A stretch of DNA of 64,000 nucleotides, taken from the IMG/VR virus record IMGVR_UViG_2791355311_000001, positions 1-64,000 of that record, one strand, 5' to 3'. This DNA is from a virus (taxonomy: Duplodnaviria > Caudoviricetes). Below the pieces are notes generated by a model. That model did not search any database. It was given only the letters and a program-made list of their open reading frames with translations, and had not been told where the DNA came from. Both the position numbers and the translations under genes were made by a program. Shown here in pieces: positions 37,844 to 61,735 of the stretch (position 1 is the stretch's first letter; every line of letters starts with the position of its first letter).

Positions 37844-38180
37844 TTACGCGCCTTTCAAAGTGTGGGCAGTCCGTAAAGTTCTTATAGTTTCCACCCCATT
37901 TATTTATAGGGGTTAAACTTTCCCAAAAAGCTCCAATTTCTTTTAAATCATCTTTGTTGGTTAGCCAGTTACCTTCTTTAAATATAAACAAATCAATAGC
38001 ACACTTTATTAAGTGGTTTGAATTGTTTGTTTTGCTTTTTCCTGTTTTTAGATAAATTTCTTGTTGCTCTTTTGTTCTTAAAAGCTCTCCACCTCTTACA
38101 CTGTATCCGTTTGTATGTATATAGTGCAAAAGCTTTTCTACATCTTTCATAAATAATTCTTGTTCTTTTCCTAAACTCAT
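37836..38180 (-). CDS. Endolysin, M15 family peptidase
   Basis: RT.EQQ, S.H....AID, WGG.....D.PHFE. Confidence 0.85.
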   Translation of the reverse strand: MSLGKEQELFMKDVEKLLHYIHTNGYSVRGGELLRTKEQQEIYLKTGKSKTNNSNHLIKCAIDLFIFKEGNWLTNKDDLKEIGAFWESLTPINKWGGNYKNFTDCPHFERRVNG

Positions 38181-48595: not shown

Positions 48596-49266
48596 AGCCC
48601 CCTTAACAACTCTTCGCCTATATCAACATTTGAAACACTTTCTCCCCTTTTAATTCGCTCAAATGTATCACTCTTTGCTGTTGCTCCGTTTGTGCCTATA
48701 ATATCATCTGGTGTTTCTTTTGGAGTAGCTGTATTTAGCATTGCTTTTGCTACTATTTTCCAACCCTTGTAGTCTTCACCAAGTAGGTCAATTACTCCGT
48801 TTTCTTCAGCAAACTTTCCTAAATCTTCCGGCTTAATTGTAGGAAACTCTTTTTCAAACATATTGATATTTTGGTTAAATAGCTCTTGTTTTCGGGCTTG
48901 TTCCATCATCTGCTCTTGTTGTGCTTTAAACGCTTGTAACTCTTGCATTTTCTGGTTGTAATCAGACAATCCCAACTCTTTTAACAACGTTTCTCTTTCA
49001 AGTTCAGCTGGTGTTGGCTCTGCTTGTTGCTGTGATTGTTCTTGTGCTTGTTGTTCTTGTGCCTCTTGCTCGTTTAAAGCTTGTGCTAAAGCGTTCTTAA
49101 TATCATCAGGATTTAGCCCTTTTTGCTCTTGTGCCTCTTGCTTTGTTTCTTCTTTACTTTCTTGCCCTTGCTCTTGTGCCTCTTGCCCTTGCTCTTGTGT
49201 CTCTTGAACTTCGCTATCGCCCACTAATTCATTTACTAAACTTGCTAATGCCTCATTCTCTGTCAT
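48592..49266 (-). CDS. Putative scaffolding protein
   Basis: Gln/Glu-rich repeats, downstream of the portal. Confidence 0.65.
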   Translation of the reverse strand: MTENEALASLVNELVGDSEVQETQEQGQEAQEQGQESKEETKQEAQEQKGLNPDDIKNALAQALNEQEAQEQQAQEQSQQQAEPTPAELERETLLKELGLSDYNQKMQELQAFKAQQEQMMEQARKQELFNQNINMFEKEFPTIKPEDLGKFAEENGVIDLLGEDYKGWKIVAKAMLNTATPKETPDDIIGTNGATAKSDTFERIKRGESVSNVDIGEELLRGL

Positions 49267-49393
49267 CTTTATACTCCTTAATTGTTTGTATTAAATTTAA
49301 AATGTGTTTTTGCTTTTCTATTGCTAAAATTCTTGTCCTATCATCATTTGATGAGTTGTTAAAAGTTGCTTGTGCTTCATATAGCAAACTCAT
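49253..49393 (-). CDS. 46-aa protein after the portal (start likely MSLLYEAQ)
   Basis: ATG at 49393 with GGAG upstream. Typical small gene between portal and scaffold. Confidence 0.45.
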   Translation of the reverse strand: MSLLYEAQATFNNSSNDDRTRILAIEKQKHILNLIQTIKEYKDDRE

Positions 49394-49577
49394 CAGTTGC
49401 TCCAATATCGCCCGTGTCAGGGGGTTGTAATATTGGGAGATTTCCTTGTTCGCTAATAGCTCCTGCTCCAATATCGCTAGTTCCTGCTCCCTTGTTAATA
49501 ACATCTTGTAAGCTCTCTTCCTTTCCTAGAAATTCATCAGTATTCTTAACACCATACAACGGTAAAAGCATTCTGAT
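49377..49577 (-). pseudogene. 3' fragment (66 codons) of the prophage 2 portal gene
   Basis: IRMLLPLYGVKN... continues in frame from ...ANGKI once 49584-60319 is removed. Confidence 0.88.
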
Positions 49578-49583
49578 AATCTT
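49578..49583. repeat. Left junction core AATCTT
   Basis: Direct repeat of 60314-60319. Confidence 0.88.
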
Positions 49584-49596
49584 GTATGATTCCCCT

Positions 49597-49820
49597 ACAA
49601 CATTTATAAAAGTTCTACATTCTCAAATCATACTTTTATAAATTGTTTAAACAATGTAAAATGATGATAACTCGCTGTTAATAATTCAAGTGCTTTGACA
49701 CTGTTGGGAAGATTTTAGCGATTATCATCGTTTTTGTTACTGATTAAAATCTTAGTAAGTTTAATTAAAACTCTACTGAATACAAGAAAAGTAACAAGAA
49801 CTAAATTAAATTTTACATTC
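49597..49820 (+). ncRNA. IS110 bridge RNA (5' hairpin, target-binding loop, donor-binding loop)
   Basis: Stems 49602-13/49632-43, 49653-62/49810-19, 49663-76/49717-29, 49732-41/49790-99. Guides match donor and target junctions. Confidence 0.85.
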
Positions 49821-49836
49821 AAAAAAGGATTCACAC

Positions 49837-50802
49837 ATGAAAAAATGTTATTTTTGTGGAGTTGATGTATCCAAAAATACTTTGGATTTATGTTTTTTAA
49901 CAAACAACGATAATATAAAACCTAAATATGAAAAATTACCAAACAATAAAGAAGTATTAAAAGCTTATTTTAATTCATTTATCAGTGATGATATACTTGT
50001 AGTATTAGAATATACAAACAATTATCATATAGCATTGCAAGAAGCATTAAGCGAATTAAAAATAAAATACTCAGTACTTAACCCAAACAAAACATCACAC
50101 TTTTTAAAACACCTAACCCATATAAAATCAGATTTAACAGATAGCTATGGACTTGCTTTATATTGTAAAATGTTTAAGTCCTATATAAACCCATCTAAAT
50201 ATAATAAAGAATATATATTAATTAAAAGCTATAACACTACAAGCGAGCTTTTATCAAAGATAACAACTCAATTAAAAAATCTAAAAAAATCACAATCTTT
50301 AACTTATGATAAAGACATAGAAATAATAGTTAAAGATTTAATAAAACATATAGATAGTATAAAAGAAAAACTTAACAATATAGCTTTTGAACTACTAAAG
50401 CAATACATACCACAAACCGAGCAAATTATAAAAGATAGCAAAGGAATAGGTAAAGATTTAGCTTTAAAACTATTCCCACAGCTACATTTTAACAGATTTA
50501 AAAATGCAAAAGAATTTATCTCTTTTATTGGCTTATCGCCTAGAATTTATGAATCGGGTACAAGTGTTAAAAAAACTAAAAAAATAAATAAAATTGGAAG
50601 CAGCACAATAAGAAAAGCTTTATTTATGTCTGCTTTATCTTGTATCAGATTTAACGATAAATTTAAAACAAGATATAACAGGTTAATAGATAGTGGAAAA
50701 AATAAAAAAGTTGCTATTGTTGCAGTAATGTGTGCGATAGTCCGATTTTTAAAAAGTTATTTTAAAAATGAAACAAATACCTATAAATTTAACACAGTTT
50801 AA
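49837..50802 (+). CDS. IS110-family (bridge) recombinase
   Basis: GVDVSK, LEYT, KSDLTDS (DEDD RuvC-like). GIG, FIGLSP...ESG (catalytic Ser region), KVAIVAVM. 321 aa, intact. Confidence 0.92.
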   Translation: MKKCYFCGVDVSKNTLDLCFLTNNDNIKPKYEKLPNNKEVLKAYFNSFISDDILVVLEYTNNYHIALQEALSELKIKYSVLNPNKTSHFLKHLTHIKSDLTDSYGLALYCKMFKSYINPSKYNKEYILIKSYNTTSELLSKITTQLKNLKKSQSLTYDKDIEIIVKDLIKHIDSIKEKLNNIAFELLKQYIPQTEQIIKDSKGIGKDLALKLFPQLHFNRFKNAKEFISFIGLSPRIYESGTSVKKTKKINKIGSSTIRKALFMSALSCIRFNDKFKTRYNRLIDSGKNKKVAIVAVMCAIVRFLKSYFKNETNTYKFNTV

Positions 50803-50962
50803 AATTTTAAAATCTGTGCTTAATAACTTTAATAACAAAAGGAGTATTACAAGACAAGATATATTAAACACTACAGACATATCAAAAGATAATTTAAGTA
50901 AAACAATTAAAAATGGTTATTTGTTAGAAAACAAATTAAACAAACATTTAAACAGTTTATAA
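50768..50962 (+). CDS. Small winged-HTH-like protein
   Basis: LTQFKILK...ITRQDILNTTDISKDNLSKTIK. Confidence 0.5.
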   Translation: MKQIPINLTQFKILKSVLNNFNNKRSITRQDILNTTDISKDNLSKTIKNGYLLENKLNKHLNSL

Positions 50963-50974
50963 AAGGATGACACA

Positions 50975-51415
50975 ATGGCAAAAGCTACAGAAGCTTTATT
51001 GAACACAGAAAAAGAGCAAGAGATAAAAAATATATGGAATGCTTTAAATCAGAATAACGACTTATTCGAACAAAAGATTAAAGTAACAGGTTTAAAACTT
51101 CAAGAAGGTAAGGAAAAAATAGATAAAGATGGTAACATCTTAACAGATGAGTTTGGAGAGCCGCAAAAATGGGATAACACTTATCGTTTAAGCTATGTAT
51201 CTTTAAATAGTGGTGGCGAACACTCAACAAGAATAACACAAGAACAATATTTAAATTTAAAACTTGATGAAGTATACATCGCTTCTGGCTCTATAAAATA
51301 CGTATTATACAAAGACGCATATAACACAACCCCGACCGTGGTATTTGAAAAATTTACCCCAGCTAGCGAGTTGTTTGTAACGGCAATGTTAAAACTTGAA
51401 GGTTTAAAAAAGTAG
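50975..51415 (+). CDS. Putative single-stranded DNA-binding protein
   Basis: Beta-rich 146 aa with OB-like pattern, upstream of the RCR Rep. Function inferred from context. Confidence 0.45.
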   Translation: MAKATEALLNTEKEQEIKNIWNALNQNNDLFEQKIKVTGLKLQEGKEKIDKDGNILTDEFGEPQKWDNTYRLSYVSLNSGGEHSTRITQEQYLNLKLDEVYIASGSIKYVLYKDAYNTTPTVVFEKFTPASELFVTAMLKLEGLKK

Positions 51416-51520
51416 CGCAAGCCCTGATTTTATAGGGCTTTAAACAAAAGTAAGTGCCTAGACTATCAGTACCTCACACCGTTACAAGCCCCTTTAGATA
51501 AAAAAAGAAAGGACAAAAAA

Positions 51521-51739
51521 ATGAAAACAACAATTTTTAATTCAGATATTGAAAACATATCATCTTTAGCCAATAATAATAAACATACAATGTCTATAGC
51601 CAAAGATATAGCAAATGTTATAAATGAAATAGATAGTTCTGTTTTTGTTAATAATTTAATCTTTCTCTTAAATGATGAGCAAAAAGAGCATTTTTTATAT
51701 CACTTAAAACACTCTATCATAGAAAGTAAAACAAAATGA
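51521..51739 (+). CDS. Hypothetical protein
   Basis: SD AAAGGA; ATGA overlap with rep. Confidence 0.55.
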   Translation: MKTTIFNSDIENISSLANNNKHTMSIAKDIANVINEIDSSVFVNNLIFLLNDEQKEHFLYHLKHSIIESKTK

Positions 51740-53184
51740 TTTTTGATAGCCTAAATTTTAACATTGTTCACCAAGGTATTGATACTTTAGTTTTAGGTAT
51801 TCGTTGCAATGATGAAGAATACTACAAAAATGAGTATTCTGAGTTTATATCAAAAATTTACGATTTAAAAAATCAAGCCCAATTAATAAATACTTACGGT
51901 GAAAAATATATCCTTGATGATTTAGGCTCATCATACGGTAATTTTAAAGTGTCATCTAAAGGCTTAGGTAATTATTTCGGTTTCTTTGAAAACGATGATA
52001 TATTTTGCTTAGTAGGTGATACAAGCTTTAAAAATAAACAAATGTATCATTTAAAAATACAATTTAGAAGTATATTTTTACTTAAATACGGTCATAAAGA
52101 ATGTTATAACCGTGTAAAAGCATTTTTAAATGATATATTCAAAGATAAATTTGATGTTGAAATCTCAAGGGTTGATATTTGTACCGATGTTGCTGGTATA
52201 AAATACACACCGCAGGATTTTTTAAAATTTAGAAGTTTAAAAAGAACAACAAATTACACTCATTCAACCTATAAGCATGATAGCACACTTATAAAAGATG
52301 ATGAAACAGAAACAAATCTTATAAACTTAGAACAAATGACAATTAACAATTTTATGCAATATAACAGATTTGAAGGTATCGCATTTGGCAAATCTCCATG
52401 TATGTTTAGAATATATGACAAAGTTAATCAGGTCATTAAAAAACGTATAAGTAATTTAATATTTACTAAGTGGGAGCTTTACGGATATGATATAAACTCT
52501 AAAAGCAATGTTTATCGCCATGAAATTGAACTTGGTCGCCCCTTTGTTAAAAAACTTATGGGCGATAATGTAACTGATGAAATTTCTTTTTTATTTGATA
52601 ATTTAGGGAAATTTTGGGCTTATGGTTTAAAAATTTGTAAGTGGTATGATTTAACAGATGATGAAGTTAAGAGATTAACAGAAAGCAACATTAAATCAGA
52701 TAGCAAGCGACTTATATATTTTCGTTGTGAAGCTGACACAAACCGCTTGAATTTTTGGGATATGATTAATAAATTTGATGAAGAAAACAACGAAGCTTTA
52801 TATCTTCATAAGTTTATTAATACAAGAGATATTAAAAAAGTAAAGATAGCTTTTAAATCTTTTATATCTTCAGTTTATAGTAATTTAGGTTCATTTGATG
52901 ATAATTTCACCTATGTAATCAATGAAGTTAAAAAAGACCTTGCTATGCAAAAAATATCACTTCATGAATACGGTTTATCTAAAATGTGCGGTAGCTTTAA
53001 TAAAAACGAGCAAATTATTAAAGGTGAAAAATTAGATGTTATAAATCCATTATATCCATCACTTTATCGCTCACTTGATGACTTATTACAAGCTTTACAG
53101 GATATTAGAAATGATGATTATAAAAAAGATATTGAAAAATCTTTAACGGTTTTAAAAAATGATGGATACATTTATGAATATTAA
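51736..53184 (+). CDS. Rolling-circle replication initiator, Rep_trans-like
   Basis: GIDTL, ISRVDICTD, FG.....FRIYDK (catalytic Tyr), RHEIEL. Confidence 0.8.
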   Translation: MIFDSLNFNIVHQGIDTLVLGIRCNDEEYYKNEYSEFISKIYDLKNQAQLINTYGEKYILDDLGSSYGNFKVSSKGLGNYFGFFENDDIFCLVGDTSFKNKQMYHLKIQFRSIFLLKYGHKECYNRVKAFLNDIFKDKFDVEISRVDICTDVAGIKYTPQDFLKFRSLKRTTNYTHSTYKHDSTLIKDDETETNLINLEQMTINNFMQYNRFEGIAFGKSPCMFRIYDKVNQVIKKRISNLIFTKWELYGYDINSKSNVYRHEIELGRPFVKKLMGDNVTDEISFLFDNLGKFWAYGLKICKWYDLTDDEVKRLTESNIKSDSKRLIYFRCEADTNRLNFWDMINKFDEENNEALYLHKFINTRDIKKVKIAFKSFISSVYSNLGSFDDNFTYVINEVKKDLAMQKISLHEYGLSKMCGSFNKNEQIIKGEKLDVINPLYPSLYRSLDDLLQALQDIRNDDYKKDIEKSLTVLKNDGYIYEY

Positions 53185-53476
53185 CAATAATTTATACATA
53201 GCATTAGTTGGTTATCTAATTGAAGAAAATAAAGAAAATAAATATATTTGTATTGATTTAAGGCATTATAGTGTTATAAAATCTTTTGCAAAGCAACATG
53301 GATTTATTAAATATAATAGCTTTGTAGGGAGTTTAAAACGTTATCGTGAATTACAAGAAAAATTAGCAAAAGATTTTGTTATTGCTCCTATTCGTAAGTT
53401 TTTAAGTATTAAAAATTATACCTTTAAAATTAGGGGCGATTATCTATTTATAGTTAAACAATTTACATTATTTTAG
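53159..53476 (+). CDS. Hypothetical protein
   Basis: ORF overlapping the end of rep. Confidence 0.5.
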   Translation: MMDTFMNINNNLYIALVGYLIEENKENKYICIDLRHYSVIKSFAKQHGFIKYNSFVGSLKRYRELQEKLAKDFVIAPIRKFLSIKNYTFKIRGDYLFIVKQFTLF

Positions 53477-53491
53477 AAAGGTTTTTTTATT

Positions 53492-53869
53492 TTGATAAAA
53501 ATTAATAGTATTTCTAGTTTTTTAATTAAATTTTTAAAAGATTATTATCCATATAAAAAAAATATTTCTTTTAAAATTGAAGAAATTAATAGACATTTTT
53601 TAATTATTGATTTTTATTTTAATGAAAGCTATGTAAAAAATGATTTTAGTAATTATATAACTTTTACACATTATTTTATTTTAGATGATAGTTATCTTGT
53701 CTTTCATTTTTTTATTTTTAAAAAAGCAAAAATTCAATCATCATTTTTACAAAATTTTATAATTAATCTTAAAAATGATTTTATTTTTTCTTTCAATTTA
53801 AGAGATTATGTTTTTAATTATGATGAAAATTTAACAAAATACAAAGGAGTTATTTATGCAAATAAATAA
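53492..53869 (+). CDS. Hypothetical protein (very AT-rich)
   Basis: 125-aa ORF with TTG start that fills the operon gap. Confidence 0.4.
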   Translation: MIKINSISSFLIKFLKDYYPYKKNISFKIEEINRHFLIIDFYFNESYVKNDFSNYITFTHYFILDDSYLVFHFFIFKKAKIQSSFLQNFIINLKNDFIFSFNLRDYVFNYDENLTKYKGVIYANK

Positions 53870-54182
53870 AGAAGATATCGCAAAATTTAGCGATAAGGCA
53901 AAAGGTGTTTTCGATGGACTTTCAACAATTACAAGCGTATTTTTTCCACAAATTACTGCGCCAGTTACTGCTGTTAGTAAGGTATTTTCTAAAATATCAG
54001 AACTTGATGACACAGAAGCAGAAAACATCGCAGGTTTATCTGCTACAGCTTTTAAACTTGATGAAATGATTAAACAAGTTGAGAAAGGCGAAAAGATAGA
54101 CATTGAACACTTAAAAGAACTTTCTGAAAACATTAAAAGTATAGATAGCTCTTTAGATAAATTTTACAAGGTTATTTCATGA
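53856..54182 (+). CDS. Hypothetical helical protein, possibly virion
   Basis: SD AAGGAG; amphipathic helices. Confidence 0.6.
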   Translation: MQINKEDIAKFSDKAKGVFDGLSTITSVFFPQITAPVTAVSKVFSKISELDDTEAENIAGLSATAFKLDEMIKQVEKGEKIDIEHLKELSENIKSIDSSLDKFYKVIS

Positions 54183-54844
54183 TACAATCTGTTACAAATC
54201 TGAATCAATTTTTTGAAGAGCCTGCGGATGGTTATTATCTTTTTAATGGAAATATCTATAAAAAAATTGGAGAGATTTCATTATATATTGATAATAATAC
54301 TTATGAAAATATATCTATGCTTAACACGAAATATCGAATAATATTTGTTAAGACTTCTCTTATTACCGCAGTTGATTTAAAAGACAATAAGGACTTTATT
54401 GAATCAACTTTTTTTGATTCTGAGGGTTTTCCTTCTCGTGTCCCTGCGATTTCTTCTTCTGGCTTATCTTTGCCTTTGCTGACTCCGGTAAAATTAAAAG
54501 GTTTTGATTTTTGGTTTTGTATAGCATCTTCTTTTATGCTATACATTGACAATAATACAGAAATATTATGTTATGTTCCAGAAACTTCTTTATTAGATTG
54601 TTTTGGTAAACTTTATAATCTTTCTGTTGCTTGTCCTGCTTCGCTAATTACTGAATATAAAACTGGTGAATTATTTCCTTATTGGTTCTTTTTTAATATT
54701 TATTCTTCTTTTGGTTTGCCATTTAAAAAAGACCATTTCTTAAAAGTTCTTGCCGATAAGAAAGATTTTTTGAGTTTTGAAGAATTTAAATCTTATGATG
54801 AAGAATATTATTCTCTTTATTCTTGGGCTGATTATTTTGAATGA
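54179..54844 (+). CDS. Hypothetical protein
   Basis: ATGA overlap; aromatic, beta-rich. Confidence 0.55.
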   Translation: MIQSVTNLNQFFEEPADGYYLFNGNIYKKIGEISLYIDNNTYENISMLNTKYRIIFVKTSLITAVDLKDNKDFIESTFFDSEGFPSRVPAISSSGLSLPLLTPVKLKGFDFWFCIASSFMLYIDNNTEILCYVPETSLLDCFGKLYNLSVACPASLITEYKTGELFPYWFFFNIYSSFGLPFKKDHFLKVLADKKDFLSFEEFKSYDEEYYSLYSWADYFE

Positions 54845-54902
54845 TTTTATATTTTTTATACAAAATGTTATAATCTATAAAAAAAAGAAAGGATAAAAAA
54901 AA

Positions 54903-56039
54903 ATGCCTCTTCCTGTTGTTGGTATTATTGCTAATCTTCTCCGAACCGGTGCTATATCTGCTTTTGATATTGCTAGTGCTGGTGCTGGTTCTTATGCTTT
55001 AACAAAAACTTTAAAAGATACTGATTTAAGTTCTCCACAAAACACTGGTGATTATATAAATCCTTTAGGTTTTTCAATTGCTCGTAATATTGTTGAGCGT
55101 ATAAATAATTATTCTCGTTCAAGTTCCTCAACAACTGATTTTAATCTTTCAGAAGCTCCTTCAATACCAAAGCCTGAAGATTATATTAACAAGCTCAGGT
55201 CAATTCATGATAAGGATTATACTATTCCCGCACCATCAGCTCCGCAAACTCCTAAGAACAATTTATCTTCTTCTGCTTCGTTTGCTAGTGGTAGCTCTAA
55301 TATTAATGCTGGTAATTCAACAAATCTTATCAGTGCTATTAATTCACAAAATGCTATACTTGCGGAAATTGCTTCAGCATTAAATTCTTTTGTAGCTTTA
55401 CAAGCAACAAAATCTCTTAATATTGCAGTGCCTACACAACAAGCAAGCAAAAAAGGTGGTTTTACACAAACTATATCTACACCTTTACCAAATTTTAAAC
55501 CAAAACCTGAGCTTAACTCAAAATCACTTGAAAAAAGTTTGGATTTAATAGCAAATTTATATAAAAAGTCTCTTGAAAATCCTAGTAAATCTGTAGATTT
55601 AACAGAAGTTACCAAAGCTTTAAATAATATAGCTAAAATAAAACCTAGCATAAAAATGACAATGCCAAAAGACTTATCTATAGCTTTCCCTGAATCAATG
55701 GCTGTAACTTTACCAGCTGATTACGTTGCAAATCAGACAGCTATTAAGGAAGCTTTATCTGGAACCTTTGAAATACACAAAGAACAAGCCGAATACATGA
55801 AAACACCAGCAACAGTTAAAGACCTCGATGGTAACACCATCGCTAAAGCTACTCCAAGAGAGATGTCGCTTACATACGAAGCAACTAGAGCAAGAACTGC
55901 AACAGATGAAAACAATTTTGAACTTGATGAAAATGATATAAATGCTTTATATCCTGCTTTACCGGATATATCTCAATTATTTAAATTTAAACTTGTCGGC
56001 GAAGTTACAAAGGATTATTTAAATGAAACAAATAAATAA
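54903..56039 (+). CDS. Putative DNA-pilot/minor virion protein
   Basis: Gly/Ala-rich hydrophobic N-terminus (MPLPVVGII...AGAGSYAL), Ser/Pro linkers, strong T at third codon positions. Confidence 0.5.
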   Translation: MPLPVVGIIANLLRTGAISAFDIASAGAGSYALTKTLKDTDLSSPQNTGDYINPLGFSIARNIVERINNYSRSSSSTTDFNLSEAPSIPKPEDYINKLRSIHDKDYTIPAPSAPQTPKNNLSSSASFASGSSNINAGNSTNLISAINSQNAILAEIASALNSFVALQATKSLNIAVPTQQASKKGGFTQTISTPLPNFKPKPELNSKSLEKSLDLIANLYKKSLENPSKSVDLTEVTKALNNIAKIKPSIKMTMPKDLSIAFPESMAVTLPADYVANQTAIKEALSGTFEIHKEQAEYMKTPATVKDLDGNTIAKATPREMSLTYEATRARTATDENNFELDENDINALYPALPDISQLFKFKLVGEVTKDYLNETNK

Positions 56040-56220
56040 AAATGATTTAAAAAATAATGATGTCAATAACAACGATGATAGTAATATATTGATTGATATT
56101 ATCGTTATTCTTGTTATTATTGGTATTGCTTACTATTTTATAAGCTCTTTCAAACTTGTTGGAGATGTTTCCCGTGAATATTTGGATGAGCAAAAGGTTA
56201 TAAATAATGTCAGAAACTAA
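56023..56220 (+). CDS. Small single-TM protein
   Basis: ILIDIIVILVIIGIAYYFI. Confidence 0.55.
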   Translation: MKQINKNDLKNNDVNNNDDSNILIDIIVILVIIGIAYYFISSFKLVGDVSREYLDEQKVINNVRN

Positions 56221-56968
56221 GCAAAGTAACACAGCTCGCATTATTGGTCTTGGTGTTGATGAAATGTTTGAAGATTTAACATATTCGGTTGCTTATAACG
56301 AAGTTCTAACAAGACTTAAAAATAGTGGTATGCCTGATGGAATTTTAAACGACGCTATTAATAGTGGTATTAGTATAATGTTTTCGGCTGCTTTAATGAC
56401 TTATATCCAAAAACAAGAAGCTATTATCCATAAAATTGTTGGTATTGCTGGCTCTTTGCTTATTGCTACTCTTACGCCTGTTCGTGCCGGTGCTAAAAAT
56501 CTTTTTAAAAAATTTTCCAAAGGTCGTAAGCTTGGCATGTTTAGTAAAATTTTTGGCGATTCGGATGCTAATAATATATCTTATGGACAAGTTATTGCAA
56601 CGAGTGCTAATTCTGCTTTTAATGCTCATCAATCTTCAAGTAATGTTTTTCAAGCTGGCAGTGTTGCAATGCAACAACGGGAGCATATTCTAAACACTAA
56701 AAATCATCAGATGAATTATGCTAAAGCTAAAGTTGATAGCATAAATCAAACATTATTATTTAAACTATTTACATCTAAATTTACAAGTCAAGACAAAGAA
56801 ATTTTACGTAAAATTACTGGCTCTTCTGAGATAAACATAGAAAATATTAACAAAGTTGCTTCTTTTATGTTTGTAACAGACAGCAACGGCGATATTACAG
56901 GTCTAGCTGAACAATTTACAACTATGTTAAATGGTTTGGGGTATTTTCATAATAAGGGTAAAAAATGA
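56207..56968 (+). CDS. Putative membrane-associated virion protein
   Basis: Two hydrophobic segments followed by a basic patch. Confidence 0.55.
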   Translation: MSETKQSNTARIIGLGVDEMFEDLTYSVAYNEVLTRLKNSGMPDGILNDAINSGISIMFSAALMTYIQKQEAIIHKIVGIAGSLLIATLTPVRAGAKNLFKKFSKGRKLGMFSKIFGDSDANNISYGQVIATSANSAFNAHQSSSNVFQAGSVAMQQREHILNTKNHQMNYAKAKVDSINQTLLFKLFTSKFTSQDKEILRKITGSSEINIENINKVASFMFVTDSNGDITGLAEQFTTMLNGLGYFHNKGKK

Positions 56969-57126
56969 GTATGAGTGAACAAGAATGTAAAGAAGCTGTT
57001 GAAAAAGAAATTTTATTGTTAAGTACAATTAGTAAAAATATTGAAATATTAAATTCCAATATCCAAAAACTTTTACTTGCACTTACTGGTGAAACTGGCG
57101 ATTCTACAAAAAGTCAAGGTAATTAA
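56965..57126 (+). CDS. 53-aa coiled-coil peptide MSMSEQECKE... (not in the ORF track)
   Basis: ATGA overlap; fills the gap exactly. Confidence 0.5.
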   Translation: MSMSEQECKEAVEKEILLLSTISKNIEILNSNIQKLLLALTGETGDSTKSQGN

Positions 57127-57128
57127 AC

Positions 57129-57857
57129 ATGATTGCTCCTTTAGTTTGTTGTTGTAAAAAAGAAAAAAGGGAATTTTATCTTTCTGTTTTTCAACTTATA
57201 ATTGAACTTCATGCAAGTTCAACTTATTATGATGGTGATTTAGCAAATTTGTTTGGTATTCACGTATTTCCAATATTTCCTCTAGAATTTCAAATTAATC
57301 ACAATCTTCCTAATTTCTTTTTTCGTAAAGATATTTCTTTTCCTGAAAATCATTTACCCGGATATGACTATGAAGCACCTTTATTTTTGACTGGGTTTTT
57401 TAAAAATGCTCCTGAAACTTTTTTTTATGCTGATGATTACAGCGAAAAGCCTATTCGTATTCCTGATCCTAATTTAAGTGTATCTTCAATTAACGAAATT
57501 TACTTGGCTATATTAAATTATTATGATAAAAAATCTTTTGATATAAACAACTATACCCCCGATGAATTTTCTTTTATTTTTACAAAAAAACATTCTTTTA
57601 ACGGTTTTGATTTGTTTGGCGGCGATACAGTAAAAACAAAGCACTATAATTATAATTCTTTTTCAAGTTGTTTTAATAATCTTAAATCTCTTTATGCTGA
57701 TTTTATTTCTTCGCTTGATTTTGCTAAAAAATCAAATAATTTTTATGAAGATTTTACAGGTATTCATATAGGTAAAGAATTTACTGAAATTAGTCCTTAC
57801 TCTTTTTCTCACATTTCCAGTATTGAATTATCTATAGCACTACCAATAATAAAATAA
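57129..57857 (+). CDS. Hypothetical protein, possibly receptor-binding
   Basis: 242 aa, aromatic-rich, N-terminal CCC. Confidence 0.5.
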   Translation: MIAPLVCCCKKEKREFYLSVFQLIIELHASSTYYDGDLANLFGIHVFPIFPLEFQINHNLPNFFFRKDISFPENHLPGYDYEAPLFLTGFFKNAPETFFYADDYSEKPIRIPDPNLSVSSINEIYLAILNYYDKKSFDINNYTPDEFSFIFTKKHSFNGFDLFGGDTVKTKHYNYNSFSSCFNNLKSLYADFISSLDFAKKSNNFYEDFTGIHIGKEFTEISPYSFSHISSIELSIALPIIK

Positions 57858-57872
57858 AAAAGGAGTTAATCA

Positions 57873-58229
57873 ATGCCCGTATATAAAGTAACCCAGCAAC
57901 AAGGAAATCGTGTTATAACTTCAACATACGAAGCTAAAAGCTCTACATCTTTATTACAATTTTTACAAGAAGTATCAACCGCTAAAGTTAAGTATATATA
58001 TCGTGTAGAGTATGAAGATGAAGAAACGACACCGCCAAACGATGACTTTAATTATCACAAACAATTTAAAGCATTTGCAAAAAATAGCAATAATGCTTCT
58101 AAACAAGTTTTAATACATAATGTTAAAACAACTAAGAATGAGCAAGAATTAACAAATGCAATAATTACACATCTTAGTGTAGGAGAACAAGCAATTAAAT
58201 CTGTGGCTTGTTCTTTGTTTATGCACTAA
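57873..58229 (+). CDS. ~115-aa paralogue A, candidate structural protein
   Basis: SD AAGGAG. Pattern shared with 58967-59320 and 59342-59680. Confidence 0.6.
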   Translation: MPVYKVTQQQGNRVITSTYEAKSSTSLLQFLQEVSTAKVKYIYRVEYEDEETTPPNDDFNYHKQFKAFAKNSNNASKQVLIHNVKTTKNEQELTNAIITHLSVGEQAIKSVACSLFMH

Positions 58230-58282
58230 ATTTTTAACCTTTCTTATAATCTAACCGCTTTAATTTTGAGCCTTGTCTATTT

Positions 58283-58328
58283 AAGCCTTGCGGTCGCTCT
58301 GCGACCTGCTGGCTTGATCCTTTTTTTT
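58283..58328 (+). terminator. GC-rich hairpin followed by a T-run
   Basis: AAGCC..GGTCGC-TCT-GCGACC..GGCTT then T8. Confidence 0.5.
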
Positions 58329-58560
58329 CTCATTCTCTTACTTTTTCTTACTCTCTTTTTGCCATTTTCTATCTTCTTGAAAAACTATAATCACATCTTA
58401 TTAAATTCTTTATAAAAATACTCCCCAAACTCTTGTATTTTTTATTTTTATATTATTTTGCTTACTTGTTTTGTTTTTCTTTGATTCTATAGCTTGTTTG
58501 ATATCTTTATACAGCTTTTTAACTTAACCCTTATATTTTTTTATTTATTTCCTAATAAAT

Positions 58561-58706
58561 AATATTTTTCATTCTTGCATAAATACCCAATATTATTTTA
58601 TTTTTGCTTGTCAAGACTGCGAAGCACACCGCTAGGTGCTTGGTCTTTACAAGCTTTCAAAAATAAAATAATAAACTCCAATTTATGCCAAGAATGATAA
58701 AATATT
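58561..58706. repeat. 146-bp imperfect inverted repeat (candidate sso or packaging signal)
   Basis: Includes a 16-bp perfect arm TATTATTTTATTTTTG/CAAAAATAAAATAATA, GCTTGTCAAGAC/GTCTTTACAAGC and AAGCAC/GTGCTT. Confidence 0.8.
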
Positions 58707-58966
58707 TCTTATATCTGTTTGTTTGTCTTTTTTTTTAATCAACTAAAATTTTGTAATAAAAACATATCCATCTGTGTTAATTTCATAATTTTACATTTTT
58801 AAAAGTTGCTTAAAAACTTTTAAACGCCCCTTTATAACGTTTAATAATCATGTGTTGCTTCAACTTTTTATATTTATCTTTATAATTTGAATTGTTTTAA
58901 AAACGTTTTTTAACAAATATTTTAAGTCTATATGACACAAATAAAACAAGAAAAAAAAGGAAACAC

Positions 58967-59320
58967 ATGCTAAAACAATACATCCAAGGTTTAAATCCTA
59001 AGACATTGTCTTTTAGTGATAATAGTGATGAGGATTCTCTGTTACCACTTCTTGCTGGAAAAATTGAAAAATATGAGCAAACTGCTACTGGTGGAGCTGT
59101 ATTAAATGAACTTCCCACTACATTAAATCGTAAAGAATTTATCGTTTCTAAAGATAGTCCTACTGGTAGAATTTCTTCAATAGTTAGAATACCGCACGTT
59201 AAAGAAACTTTTTACTTTAACGAGCTTAATGCTTCTGTTAAAGGTAAATTTGATTCATCTTTTACTAGCGATGTTAAATGTGATGAAGTTAAATTACGTT
59301 TCGACTCTCTAGCAAAATAA
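58967..59320 (+). CDS. ~115-aa paralogue B, candidate structural protein
   Basis: RIPHVK.T and VKCDEV motifs. Confidence 0.6.
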   Translation: MLKQYIQGLNPKTLSFSDNSDEDSLLPLLAGKIEKYEQTATGGAVLNELPTTLNRKEFIVSKDSPTGRISSIVRIPHVKETFYFNELNASVKGKFDSSFTSDVKCDEVKLRFDSLAK

Positions 59321-59341
59321 TTAAGATAAAAGGATAAAAAA

Positions 59342-59680
59342 ATGGCTAAAACATTAATAAGAAACAAGATAGCTAGTAAAACTTTTGGTATGGCTTTGCC
59401 TGCTAGTGCTGAAACTGCAAAAGCTTTTGCTGATGTTGCTCTTGAGGGTGAATATGCAATATTTGAAAGAAAAAGTGAGCAAGGTAATGATACCGAAGCC
59501 CAAGTTATAGAATATGTTGTTACTGGTAAGAGTGAGGCAGGTTTTAAAACAACATTTAGTTTTTATGCAAATGCTAACAAAACAGAAGTTGATATTAAAA
59601 CTGCTCTTTTAGAAAAAACTTTCAACGGTGTTAAGTTTGATGAAATTTATATAATTTCGGCTAAATATGTTAAAGGTTAA
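59342..59680 (+). CDS. ~115-aa paralogue C, candidate major structural protein
   Basis: Strong SD AAAGGA, VKFDEI motif, T3-biased codons. Confidence 0.6.
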   Translation: MAKTLIRNKIASKTFGMALPASAETAKAFADVALEGEYAIFERKSEQGNDTEAQVIEYVVTGKSEAGFKTTFSFYANANKTEVDIKTALLEKTFNGVKFDEIYIISAKYVKG

Positions 59681-59691
59681 TAAACATTAAT

Positions 59692-59922
59692 ATGCAATCT
59701 TTAACAAATGAATATTTAGAGTTAGTGCTAACTGCACTAGCTCTTTTCTTATCTGGTCTCAATTGGTTTATATCTCAAAAATTATCAAGTTTTTCTTATA
59801 GACTTGATAAGATAGAAACATCTTATACTGACACTTATCAGATAAAAGCAGATATACAGCTATTAAAAGAAAAAATAGATTTCATTATTGAGATGTGTAA
59901 AGATAATAATAAAAAGGTTTAA
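59692..59922 (+). CDS. Putative holin (one TM plus coiled coil)
   Basis: LELVLTALALFLSGLNWFI, directly upstream of the endolysin. Confidence 0.55.
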   Translation: MQSLTNEYLELVLTALALFLSGLNWFISQKLSSFSYRLDKIETSYTDTYQIKADIQLLKEKIDFIIEMCKDNNKKV

Positions 59923-59924
59923 CT

Positions 59925-60266
59925 ATGCCGTTAGGAAAAGAACAAGAAGATTTCACTAAAGATTTAAATAAATTACTTACATATTTACATAATAATAACT
60001 ATAATGTAAGATGTGGTGAACTATTTAGAACACAAGAACAACAAGAAATTTACTATCAAAGAAAACTAACTAAAACAAAAAATAGCTATCATACAAAAAA
60101 ATTAGCTATTGATTTATTTATATTCAAAAACGATACATGGTTAAAAACCAAAGAGCAATTACAACCAATAGGGGATTATTGGGAGAGCTTAAACAACATA
60201 AACAAATGGGGTGGTAATTATAACAGTTTTATAGACTGTGTACATTTTGAAAGAAGAGCAAAATAA
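59925..60266 (+). CDS. Endolysin, M15 family peptidase
   Basis: S.H....AID and WGG...D..HFE. 70/113 identities to 37836-38180 by manual count. Confidence 0.85.
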   Translation: MPLGKEQEDFTKDLNKLLTYLHNNNYNVRCGELFRTQEQQEIYYQRKLTKTKNSYHTKKLAIDLFIFKNDTWLKTKEQLQPIGDYWESLNNINKWGGNYNSFIDCVHFERRAK

Positions 60267-60297
60267 GCTAAAATAAAAAACTACAATTTAAATACTC

Positions 60298-60319
60298 TTG
60301 ACATTTATCTTAAAATCTT
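60298..60319 (+). promoter_or_regulatory. Right end: -35 box TTGACA plus junction core AATCTT
   Basis: Joins TATGAT (49585-49590) at 17-bp spacing only in the circular form. Confidence 0.85.
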
Positions 60320-61735
60320 CCCATTTGCTTTTTTAAGTTGCATTGCACCTTCCATATCTTGAAGTTGCAAACAAACGCCAAGTTGATTACCAATGGCTCC
60401 CATTGCTTCCATTAGCCCCTGTTTTTGCACTTCTTTATTTAAAGCACCAATTCCCGTATTTAAACTAACTGCAAAAGATGGTATTTCATCTCTGCTATAT
60501 CCCGCAAAGAAATCAGCGTTGCCATATTTCCAAACCAATTTTGCAAGTCTTTCAAATATAGGCTCAAAAAATGTTTCGTTAAAAGTTCTAATATAACCTT
60601 GTATCCTAACGCTACCTTCATTCGCCATAATGCTAGCCATCGTTGCAGTTTCTTTTCTGTATGTACTTGCTCCATTTTGTTGAGGGCTTACACCACTTGC
60701 TTCGCTCATTTCTTGGTCTATTAAACTTACTGCTAGTTGTGCCACATTTAGATTAGGCGCAGGTAGCACTTGTAAGGCTGTTGGCTCATTTGTAAATATT
60801 GGCAAGCCTATCGTTTCTATTTGCTCCCTTGTAACATTTGCACTTGTGTTAACTACTATCTTTGGCTTTAATGCCATATTGATACCATCTATAATTGAGT
60901 TTCTTGTAATGTTTATCTCGTCTTGTAAAGGTAAAATACTAGCAAGAGGTGGCTCACCATACACACAAACAAAGTCTTGCTCGTTAAAATCTCTAACCTG
61001 TGGTGTCATATACCCAAAGATAAAGGGTTGTCCATCTTTTAGCTTAATGCCTTCTCTTAAAAGTGTTTCGTTAAATAAGGTTGAAACTTCCCATTCCCCA
61101 TTGATTTGTTCGTAAATATCATATACTTCAAAACGCTCATAAGGCTTAAATTCAATATCATCAAGGCTTAATAACACTTGTTCTTTTTTAAATATCTTTC
61201 TTTTTGCAAGTGCTAACAAATCATCAGCCGTTAAGATTAGTTTATTGACTATATAACGCACATCTCTTGGGCTTTTAGCATTTGGGTCAAAGTATATCTC
61301 ATCTAATTCTATCTCTTCAATAATAGGCATATCACCAGACCAATATACCTTAGCCACGCTTGTTCCTAAGAACGGTATTTTTTGAAAGATTGGTGCAAAT
61401 GTGTTATAAAGCTTTAGCATATCGGTGTAAATATCCAAAGCCTCTTGCCATTTGTCTATAACTTCTTGCTTAGAATTGATATAAGTTTGAAGTTTCGCAA
61501 AAGTATCATTGTTAAAATACGTTTCGCTTAAACTATCACTTATACGCTTAGCCTTTGCGTTTATCTTTGGTATATAAATGCGTGATTTGTTCCTTTTTGC
61601 AAGTGATGTTATCTGCTCTTGTTCTAGATTAAGCAAGTAAGCACTATTTAATTTATCAAAGCTAGGCTTATACTTTTCAAAGCCGTCCTTCGCATTTGAT
61701 AACAACTCTTGCAAATAAACTACATCTTTTCCCAT
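60314..61735 (-). pseudogene. 5' part (474 codons) of the prophage 2 portal gene, interrupted
   Basis: KSRIYIP, FDPNA, CVYGE, LQDEIN.TRN. Stops two codons into the inserted element. Confidence 0.88.

Follow-up and report, generated by a model that had tools for sequence, protein, structure and literature searches.

Closest described systems

The closest described systems to the locus reported here are insertion sequences of the IS110 family, including IS621. According to the available portion of Durrant et al. 2024 (PMC11208160), the circular form of an IS110 element rebuilds a promoter across its core, and this promoter drives the bridge RNA. For IS621, the accessible part of PMC13626964 describes linear loci that rely on weak read-through, and a joint promoter that then boosts recombinase and RNA and favors re-insertion. 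In this study, we analyzed a window of 64,000 nucleotides (the whole stretch of DNA, positions 1 to 64,000 of the IMG/VR record IMGVR_UViG_2791355311_000001) from the host genus Campylobacter. It contains a mobile element of 10,736 bp (49584-60319), the ends of which would form a promoter of this kind when joined in a circle. A preliminary description of the window had named junction promoters as a hallmark of IS110 elements, and both sources bear this out as far as their available text goes.

Compared with IS110/IS621 as presented in these partial sources, the element has the same DEDD plus Tnp recombinase, a left-end bridge RNA with a 5' stem-loop, target loop, and donor loop, a short shared core without terminal inverted repeats, and a -35 box in its right end whose -10 partner lies in the left end, the two coming together in the circle. 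In contrast, its core is TT instead of CT, it is usually present as a single copy per genome, an anti-Shine-Dalgarno helix overlaps the promoter, and the host normally lacks -35 boxes. The element also departs from the classical compact format of the family (about 1.2-1.6 kb without passengers; about 1.5 kb in the described systems), with 10.7 kb and about 19 passenger open reading frames (ORFs). Nevertheless, sequence comparison has established that it genuinely belongs to the IS110 (bridge recombinase) family. Junction promoters as such are textbook IS110 biology, and the setting on a far larger element adds the novelty.

Large IS110 loci are also described in the available part of a preprint by Hu et al. 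2026 (10.64898/2026.08.14.744561), with cargo up to about 100 kb that is mostly plasmid-derived. In those loci, as here, recombinase and bridge RNA mobilize far more than 1.5 kb, and half-matching sites are used, which resembles one copy in our set (L054). However, the expanded loci are described as progressive accretions, mostly of plasmid DNA and resistance genes, whereas here one conserved syntenic gene set is carried. The words promoter and Campylobacter are absent from the portion of the Hu et al. text available.

A probable split promoter reunited at the circle junction

Joining position 60319 to 49584 generated TTGACA, a 17-base spacer, and TATGAT directly upstream of the bridge RNA, matching 11 of 12 positions of the sigma-70 consensus at optimal spacing (Table 1). 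The preliminary description had given TTGACA at 60298-60303, 16 bp to the end of the core, G49584, and TATGAT at 49585-90; all of these lie where it placed them, and the joined sequence and the 10.7 kb that part the two boxes in the integrated element were likewise confirmed from the coordinates. The left donor sequence TTAAAATC, located within 60304..60319, is matched by the bridge RNA. We consider it probable that the hexamers represent two halves of one sigma-70-type promoter parted by integration, and that this is a junction promoter of the IS110/IS621 type serving the bridge RNA and recombinase. Conservation, together with the analogy to IS110/IS621, gives this reading good support. In the circle, the right-end -35 box would stand 17 bp from the left-end -10 box, and transcription would start close to A49597, at the base of the bridge RNA. 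The junction transcript would thus give the bridge RNA and then, by read-through, the recombinase mRNA, as in IS621.

When random pairs of genome pieces were joined by a script, only 3 of 20,000 gave a junction-spanning score of 11 or more, and the exact TTGACA-N17-TATGAT pattern occurred twice on both strands of the 1.76 Mb genome. By the same scoring, the integrated left and right junctions reached 8 and 7.5, and the restored empty site 8; no linear promoter site above 10/12 was found within 49000-60800. Matches of 9-10/12 were frequent here (83, against 67.9 expected from shuffles), as might be put forward for a chance resemblance in an AT-rich genome. Given the rarity of a score of 11 at random junctions and the retention of the pattern in all relatives (see below), such a coincidence is hardly credible.

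The arrangement was compared among 26 related elements for which both ends were available: the window itself, 17 loci from genomes, and 8 from metagenomes, which together occupy 16 different flank pairs. Their right ends were located solely by a motif beside the core, without using the -35 box. The -35 position was occupied by TTGACA in 12 elements and by TTGACT in the other 14, and the distance to the -10 box in the joined ends was exactly 17 in every one, while the three bases that follow the -35 hexamer varied. At the left end, an unselected alignment of the 330 bases upstream of the recombinase showed homology starting at GTATGAT in 21/21 sequences. By comparison, the -35 position supplied by the flank in the integrated state had a mean of 2.6/6 matches over 41 left junctions, with one site reaching 5/6.

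Table 1. Coordinates of the features discussed in the text (numbering of the window)
Feature	Position	Strand	Basis or remark
-35 half, TTGACA	60298..60303	+	right end of element; read from sequence
Final 16 bases of right end	60304..60319	+	promoter spacer; ends in TT core 60318-60319
First base G of left end and -10 half TATGAT	49584..49590	+	sequence; GTATGAT opens homology in aligned upstream regions
Predicted transcription start A49597	49597	+	7 bases past -10 box, 2 bases before 5' stem-loop of RNA; from spacing
Anti-Shine-Dalgarno segment	49587..49593	+	between -10 box and predicted start; can pair with 49827-49833
Bridge RNA	49599..49799	+	fold, covariation, guide-flank matching
Bridge RNA 5' stem-loop	about 49599-49647	+	fold
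Target-binding stem-loop	about 49662-49729	+	guides about 49678-49687 and 49705-49716
Donor-binding stem-loop	about 49735-49797	+	guides 49745-49754 and 49778-49787
Ribosome-binding region of recombinase, partner of anti-Shine-Dalgarno segment	49827..49833	+	consensus structure
IS110-family DEDD recombinase, 321 amino acids (aa)	49837..50802	+	PF01548 4.4e-13 (above cut-off), PF02371 3.4e-20
64-aa ORF, possible winged-helix regulator	50768..50962	+	overlaps recombinase stop; TIGR01889 0.0047, MarR_2 0.021, below cut-offs
Early block	50975..54844	+	146-aa possible single-stranded DNA (ssDNA)-binding protein, 72-aa ORF, 482-aa Rep-like protein, four further ORFs
146-aa possible ssDNA-binding protein	50975-51415	+	G5P/ssDBP language-model lead 0.84-0.86, weak
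482-aa Rep-like protein	51736-53184	+	lead to Rep_trans rolling-circle initiators from language-model features and predicted structure
Middle block	54903..58229	+	378, 65, 253, 53, 242, and 118 aa proteins, partly membrane-type; no family matches
Long imperfect 146-base hairpin	58561..58706	.	self inverted match; DNA fold -40.7 kcal/mol, z -9.26
Late block	58967..60266	+	117-aa and 112-aa conserved proteins, holin-like protein, endolysin; synteny in relatives
76-aa holin-like membrane protein	59692-59922	+	one hydrophobic segment
M15 peptidase endolysin	59925-60266	+	PF13539 3.9e-9
Left TT core copy at integrated left junction	49582..49583	+	empty-site comparison
Severed C-terminal part of portal gene	49377..49583	-	frame continues portal sequence of L014-L017, L019, L020
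Interrupted portal gene, N-terminal 473 codons	60305..61735	-	PF23899 4.9e-16; ends in 3 element-encoded codons and stop

Evidence against the promoter and alternative explanations

Several observations weigh against a junction promoter. In C. jejuni, about 89% of promoters have a periodic A/T pattern in place of a -35 box, plus an extended -10 box, according to the available text of PMC3656092. In the host genome itself, TTGACA-like hexamers were not enriched 17 bases upstream of -10-like hexamers (33, compared with 16-40 at other spacers), and the junction -10 box has no TG extension. In addition, TATGAT is overlapped by a donor guide in its first bases and by the anti-Shine-Dalgarno helix in the remainder, so its conservation is over-determined and the -35 half alone counts as independent evidence. 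None of the 43 IMG/VR and metagenome loci showed a right end adjoining a left end or a terminal overlap, and three DNA sequencing runs contained only fragments of the element and no joint. The helix that would hide the ribosome-binding site is also weaker in the window than in relatives (6/7 pairs by reading the sequence). Finally, the preliminary description had this promoter exist only in the excised circle. The separation of the boxes upon integration agrees with that claim, but one integrated insertion site (L071, L100, and L125) supplies TTAACA at 17 bases, and the restriction to the circle is thus not absolute.

Alternatively, the hexamers could be kept for reasons other than transcription, namely TATGAT by the donor guide and the RNA helix with the ribosome-binding site, and TTGACw because protein or RNA of the recombination complex touches it. 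Their likeness to a promoter would in that case be incidental. The overlap of the -10 box with the right-donor-guide match and helix 1, and the lack of general use of a TTGACA -35 box in the host genome, fit this explanation. However, the -35 hexamer stands 16 bases from the end, beyond the 10 bases of the left donor guide, with 3 variable bases in between, and it keeps a spacing of exactly 17 to the -10 box in 26/26 elements. Moreover, saliva inoviruses have a similar layout with different sequences, and the IS110 family uses such promoters, as the available portions of the sources cited above describe. We therefore regard a purely non-transcriptional role as unlikely.

Outward-facing half promoters are known for several insertion sequences, and the right-end -35 box, pointing outward at 16 bases from the end, might pair with chance -10 boxes of the flank and activate neighboring host genes. 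The integrated right junction scores 7.5/12, the gene beyond it runs the opposite way, and the right flanks differ among the 16 flank pairs, leaving no constant partner; such a function is very unlikely. The junction promoter remains the reading that we prefer.

Recombinase and bridge RNA

A recombinase profile built from the window and 12 relatives matched ISCro4 (9t56, 8.1e-28) and IS621 (8wt6, 2.3e-26) over the full length. The residues D10, E58, D99, D102, and S240 were invariant in the 13 recombinase sequences, and the first four aligned with the ISCro4 motifs; S240 lies within YESG(S/T)S in the C-terminal Tnp domain (PF02371).

The 253 bases ahead of the recombinase gene fold into a 5' stem-loop and then a pair of stem-loops with large internal loops. 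The fold of 49597-49840 had an energy of -54.8 kcal/mol (z -5.24), with the first helix beginning from base 3. In the consensus structure of 19 different sequences, 94.2% of cells were paired and 17 pairs showed compensatory change, while none of 500 shuffles reached as high and slid partners were 38-47% paired. The donor loop is nearly invariant and matches the last bases of the right end (through its guide at 49745-49754) and, as the reverse complement, the joint and the first left-end bases. In contrast, the target loop is variable and tracks the flanks of each copy. Left-flank matches of at least 9 bases were found in 15/21 cognate but only 5/386 non-cognate pairs, and the right junction predicted from the 3' side of the target loop had a mean of 5.1/7 identical bases in cognate and 2.35/7 in non-cognate pairs. 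Position-blind contiguous matching of the right flank gave no separation (4.5 vs 4.5) and was rejected.

Taken together, the sequence evidence has established that the RNA upstream of the recombinase is a bridge RNA, which begins two bases past the predicted start A49597. The preliminary description had called it a bridge RNA, and the covariation-supported structure and the guides tracking their cognate flanks substantiate that name. No bridge RNA family was matched in Rfam, where only two chance matches (E 0.67 and 0.81) appeared, and a host-genome search for a better target of the window bridge RNA was too permissive to discriminate. No fewer than 16 different flank pairs are served by rewritten target loops, and the 26 natural guide-target pairs with a TT core are useful for working out bridge RNA rules.

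Short 80-87% matches to the AT-rich 5' stem-loop (49602-49654) occur at G000:C1:814475, at 490772, and elsewhere, and may be relics or chance. Outside the window, a decayed second copy (G000:C1:573092-573650, locus L004) retains the bridge RNA together with the initial third of the recombinase gene at 71-76% DNA identity, with 8 stops, altered target-loop letters, and an unrecognizable left end.

Boundaries, core, and insertion site

The element interrupts the gene for an SU10-type phage portal protein of a prophage, which adjoins a terminase gene. Since the portal frame is split here and runs uninterrupted through the insertion point in related genomes, the 10,736 bases represent an insertion. 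AATCTT is present at both junctions (49578-83 and 60314-19), and therefore any crossover inside it yields an identical circle. For a related element at one site, 30 left-flank loci were fetched and 19 could be classified with an anchor word. These comprised 13 empty and 6 occupied copies, with a TT core common to target and element and the same kind of joint, i.e., a scarless empty site with a short shared core. Terminal inverted repeats are absent, as the ends are 9/40 identical in inverted register. These results demonstrate, at the level of sequence, that the element moves by bridge-RNA-guided recombination at a TT core with its left-end IS110-family recombinase.

Through the insertion, the prophage portal protein loses its final 60-odd codons and gains three foreign ones, which may have crippled the resident prophage. 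A second M15 peptidase gene in the window (~37852-38174, - strand), with 72% DNA identity to the endolysin gene of the element, is presumably from the interrupted tailed prophage.

A helix that may hide the ribosome-binding site

Helix 1 of the consensus structure joins the anti-Shine-Dalgarno segment to the ribosome-binding region of the recombinase through 9 pairs, with 90.5% of cells paired and compensatory changes in 3 pairs. Because the segment sits upstream of the predicted start, transcripts from the junction promoter would lack it. Transcripts entering from the flank would carry it, and hence would translate the recombinase poorly. We infer, from this structure and by analogy, that the helix damps recombinase translation from read-through.

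Fold-back inhibition of transposase translation is known for IS10 and IS50, in which the transposase ribosome-binding site is masked in transcripts that run in from outside. The likeness lies in this masking, and the difference in the type of recombinase. The helix is thus a possible second layer of control, in which the ribosome-binding site is hidden in read-through transcripts.

Possible reach of the proposed junction promoter

All listed cargo genes lie on the + strand, as the preliminary description had claimed, and they overlap or are separated by gaps of 2-105 bases, save for one gap of 737 bases. The sole + strand terminator-like site of the element is located inside the holin-like gene. 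Because no terminator-like site precedes the Rep-like gene and neighboring genes either overlap or lie almost end to end, transcripts probably reach the early block (50768-54844), and read-through from the junction promoter into the Rep block appears plausible.

A stronger version would make the junction promoter the master switch of a temperate phage, with about 20 co-oriented genes as one transcription unit; we consider this doubtful. The unit would be active in the circle and fall silent when integration parts the promoter halves, and lysogeny would accordingly need no repressor, which is likewise a claim that we hold with considerable reserve. The orientation and close packing of the genes and the position of the lone terminator-like site agree with such a switch. 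Additionally, neither the window nor 4/5 relatives had an extended -10 box anywhere from the left end through the Rep gene, and the extended -10 boxes that the window does have are missing at equivalent places in 5/5 relatives. Inoviruses that carry IS110-type transposases have a comparable split promoter directed at their replication genes. The preliminary description had also noted the absence of an obvious CI-type repressor. Indeed, no CI-like family was found in scans of Pfam, PHROGs, and NCBIfam, but a 64-aa ORF after the recombinase, which 5/5 relatives checked share at 34-42% identity, shows weak winged-helix matches of the MarR/Sar type and stands as a candidate regulator against a repressor-free switch. 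Further points against it are two extended -10 boxes of host type, both intergenic and on the + strand (a perfect TGnTATAAT at 54866, ahead of the 378-aa gene, and a TGnTAnAAT at 58695, ahead of the late block), the lack of any identified capsid or virion protein, which leaves even the term phage unproven, and the IS621 junction promoter, which favors re-insertion and not replication according to the accessible part of PMC13626964. A role of the junction promoter as the sole lysogeny switch without a repressor is accordingly speculative.

The box at 54866-54874 is intergenic, lies 37 bases ahead of the 378-aa gene, and has 90% A+T upstream.

Combining these elements, we tentatively propose a model to which we give rather limited credence. 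In this model, phage-like rolling-circle replicons of Campylobacter would use a reprogrammable bridge recombinase as their integrase and would be silenced, with no repressor, by dismantling of the early-operon promoter on integration, while the anti-Shine-Dalgarno helix would block stray translation of the recombinase. The same logic would be aimed at the Rep genes in Neisseria-type and saliva inoviruses. The model is testable, in that the integration state, and not a repressor, would set gene expression.

Genes in the Tn916 element are expressed only after circularization, when a whole promoter reads across the joint. There, too, excision links a promoter to genes that are unreachable when integrated; however, the recombinase is of another kind, and the promoter is whole instead of assembled from two halves.

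Comparison with filamentous phages carrying IS110-type transposases

Filamentous phages with their own IS110-family transposase for integration have been reported from Neisseria (Nf/MDA) and Thermus (Zuza27/OH16), according to the available portions of PMC7058167 and PMC11437467. A tblastn search found IS110-type transposases in 18 phage records, with 22-32% identity to the recombinase of the window. These included 13 small saliva inovirus genomes (11 Inovirus D_HF and 2 Dulem virus) and one Thermus phage, Zuza27. Like the element described here, such phages have genomes of 7-10 kb with all genes co-oriented, a transposase beside small ORFs and a replication initiation gene (a putative one in the window element), and a promoter-like site across the inferred attachment core. 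In contrast, they have Zot/pI, coat, and attachment genes, whereas the window element has a holin-like gene and an M15 endolysin. In filamentous prophages, the transposase lies at the far end from Rep, and in the free genome the inferred core is downstream of the transposase; because of this position, their split promoter faces Rep directly. The core of the window element, unlike theirs, lies upstream of the bridge RNA.

In two circular saliva inovirus genomes, an RNA before the transposase has donor-type guides like those of the window. The guide-matched sequence is found just past the transposase gene and forms part of a promoter-like site directed at the replication genes. This site is TTGACG-18-TATATT in L168 (2793-2822), scoring 10/12, with the same context at about 2864-2893 in L170; L171 (2534-2563) has a comparable site scoring 9/12. 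These sequences suggest that the split-promoter layout recurs in a second lineage, the saliva inoviruses, with a different geometry. A covariance model of the Campylobacter bridge RNA gave nothing credible in five inovirus genomes. In the literature on bridge RNA with inovirus and on joint promoters of Neisseria filamentous phages, supplements excluded, no paper on a split promoter was found.

Cargo genes

The preliminary description had named an SSB and a Rep among the cargo genes. Language-model leads point in this direction for both proteins, and for the 482-aa protein the predicted structure and a weak motif alignment agree (hhalign E 0.057 against inovirus replication initiation factor, with collinear motifs). 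On the other hand, Pfam gave no match for either the 146-aa or the 482-aa protein, none of 10 members of the 482-aa family matched Rep_trans PF02486, and a PDB sequence search returned nothing for the 482-aa protein. The two names are thus supported as leads but not by family assignment. A distant relative of this gene pair, with 38% and 30% identity, occurs on a metagenome contig (L130, 7193-8862). Since no IS110-type recombinase was found within the fetched contig, it is suggested that the replication module travels with other integration modules.

In the middle block, no Pfam family was found for the 378, 253, or 242 aa proteins, nor for a 221-aa protein of the element; the 253-aa and 118-aa proteins are kept in relatives at 55-68% identity. 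The 242-aa protein (57129-57857) has a cysteine-rich N-terminus with L-x-C-x-C-C within the first 10 residues. Its counterparts in L053, L055, L056, L062, and L071 are syntenic and very divergent, with only the cysteine-rich N-terminus in common. The 146-base hairpin sits in the 737-base gap, the only long non-coding gap of the element, and relatives have a comparable gap; the hairpin is a candidate replication (single-strand) origin or packaging signal.

A lysis pair, the holin-like ORF and the M15 peptidase, is present at the end of the element. Scans of the cargo with PHROGs, NCBIfam, and Pfam otherwise gave sub-threshold matches only, and no virion structural protein was identified. Because no virion protein could be named, phage-like is used here as a description and not as a proven class. 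Similarly, tblastn searches with the 482, 253, and 118 aa proteins against 50,697 phage records returned nothing, as did the 482-aa protein in plasmid records. For the 112-aa protein, the model (pLDDT 80) had no Foldseek match at E<=0.001 in PDB or BFVD (best VIA Z 5.3); the 118-aa protein gave a model with a pLDDT of 50, which could not be used. A Walker A motif was absent from the six frames of the element, and no Zot match was found.

Distribution in Campylobacter

Members of the element family were found in C. concisus, C. showae, and uncultured Campylobacter. Single-protein scans of the genome and viral collections for relatives found nothing, and the relatives came via alignments. Among 141 other species genomes of the genus, 32 had the recombinase and 29 the 482-aa cargo protein; in 28 genomes the two genes were adjacent and in the same orientation by coordinates. 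The same gene order from recombinase to M15 peptidase, spanning 9.8-11.2 kb, was found in twenty fetched loci. One conserved 10-kb phage-like gene set thus travels with a bridge recombinase across many Campylobacter species, and it represents a natural bridge system whose large and coherent payload goes to programmable sites.

One genome has two copies of the element that are 96-99% alike, the site of the second copy matching the left guide only: the bridge RNA of L054 is the same as that of L053, yet it matches the left flank alone. In addition, a natural miniature of 2,046 bp (L058, G121:C1) still has its two ends along with bridge RNA, recombinase, small winged-helix-like ORF, and M15 peptidase, with the other cargo absent.
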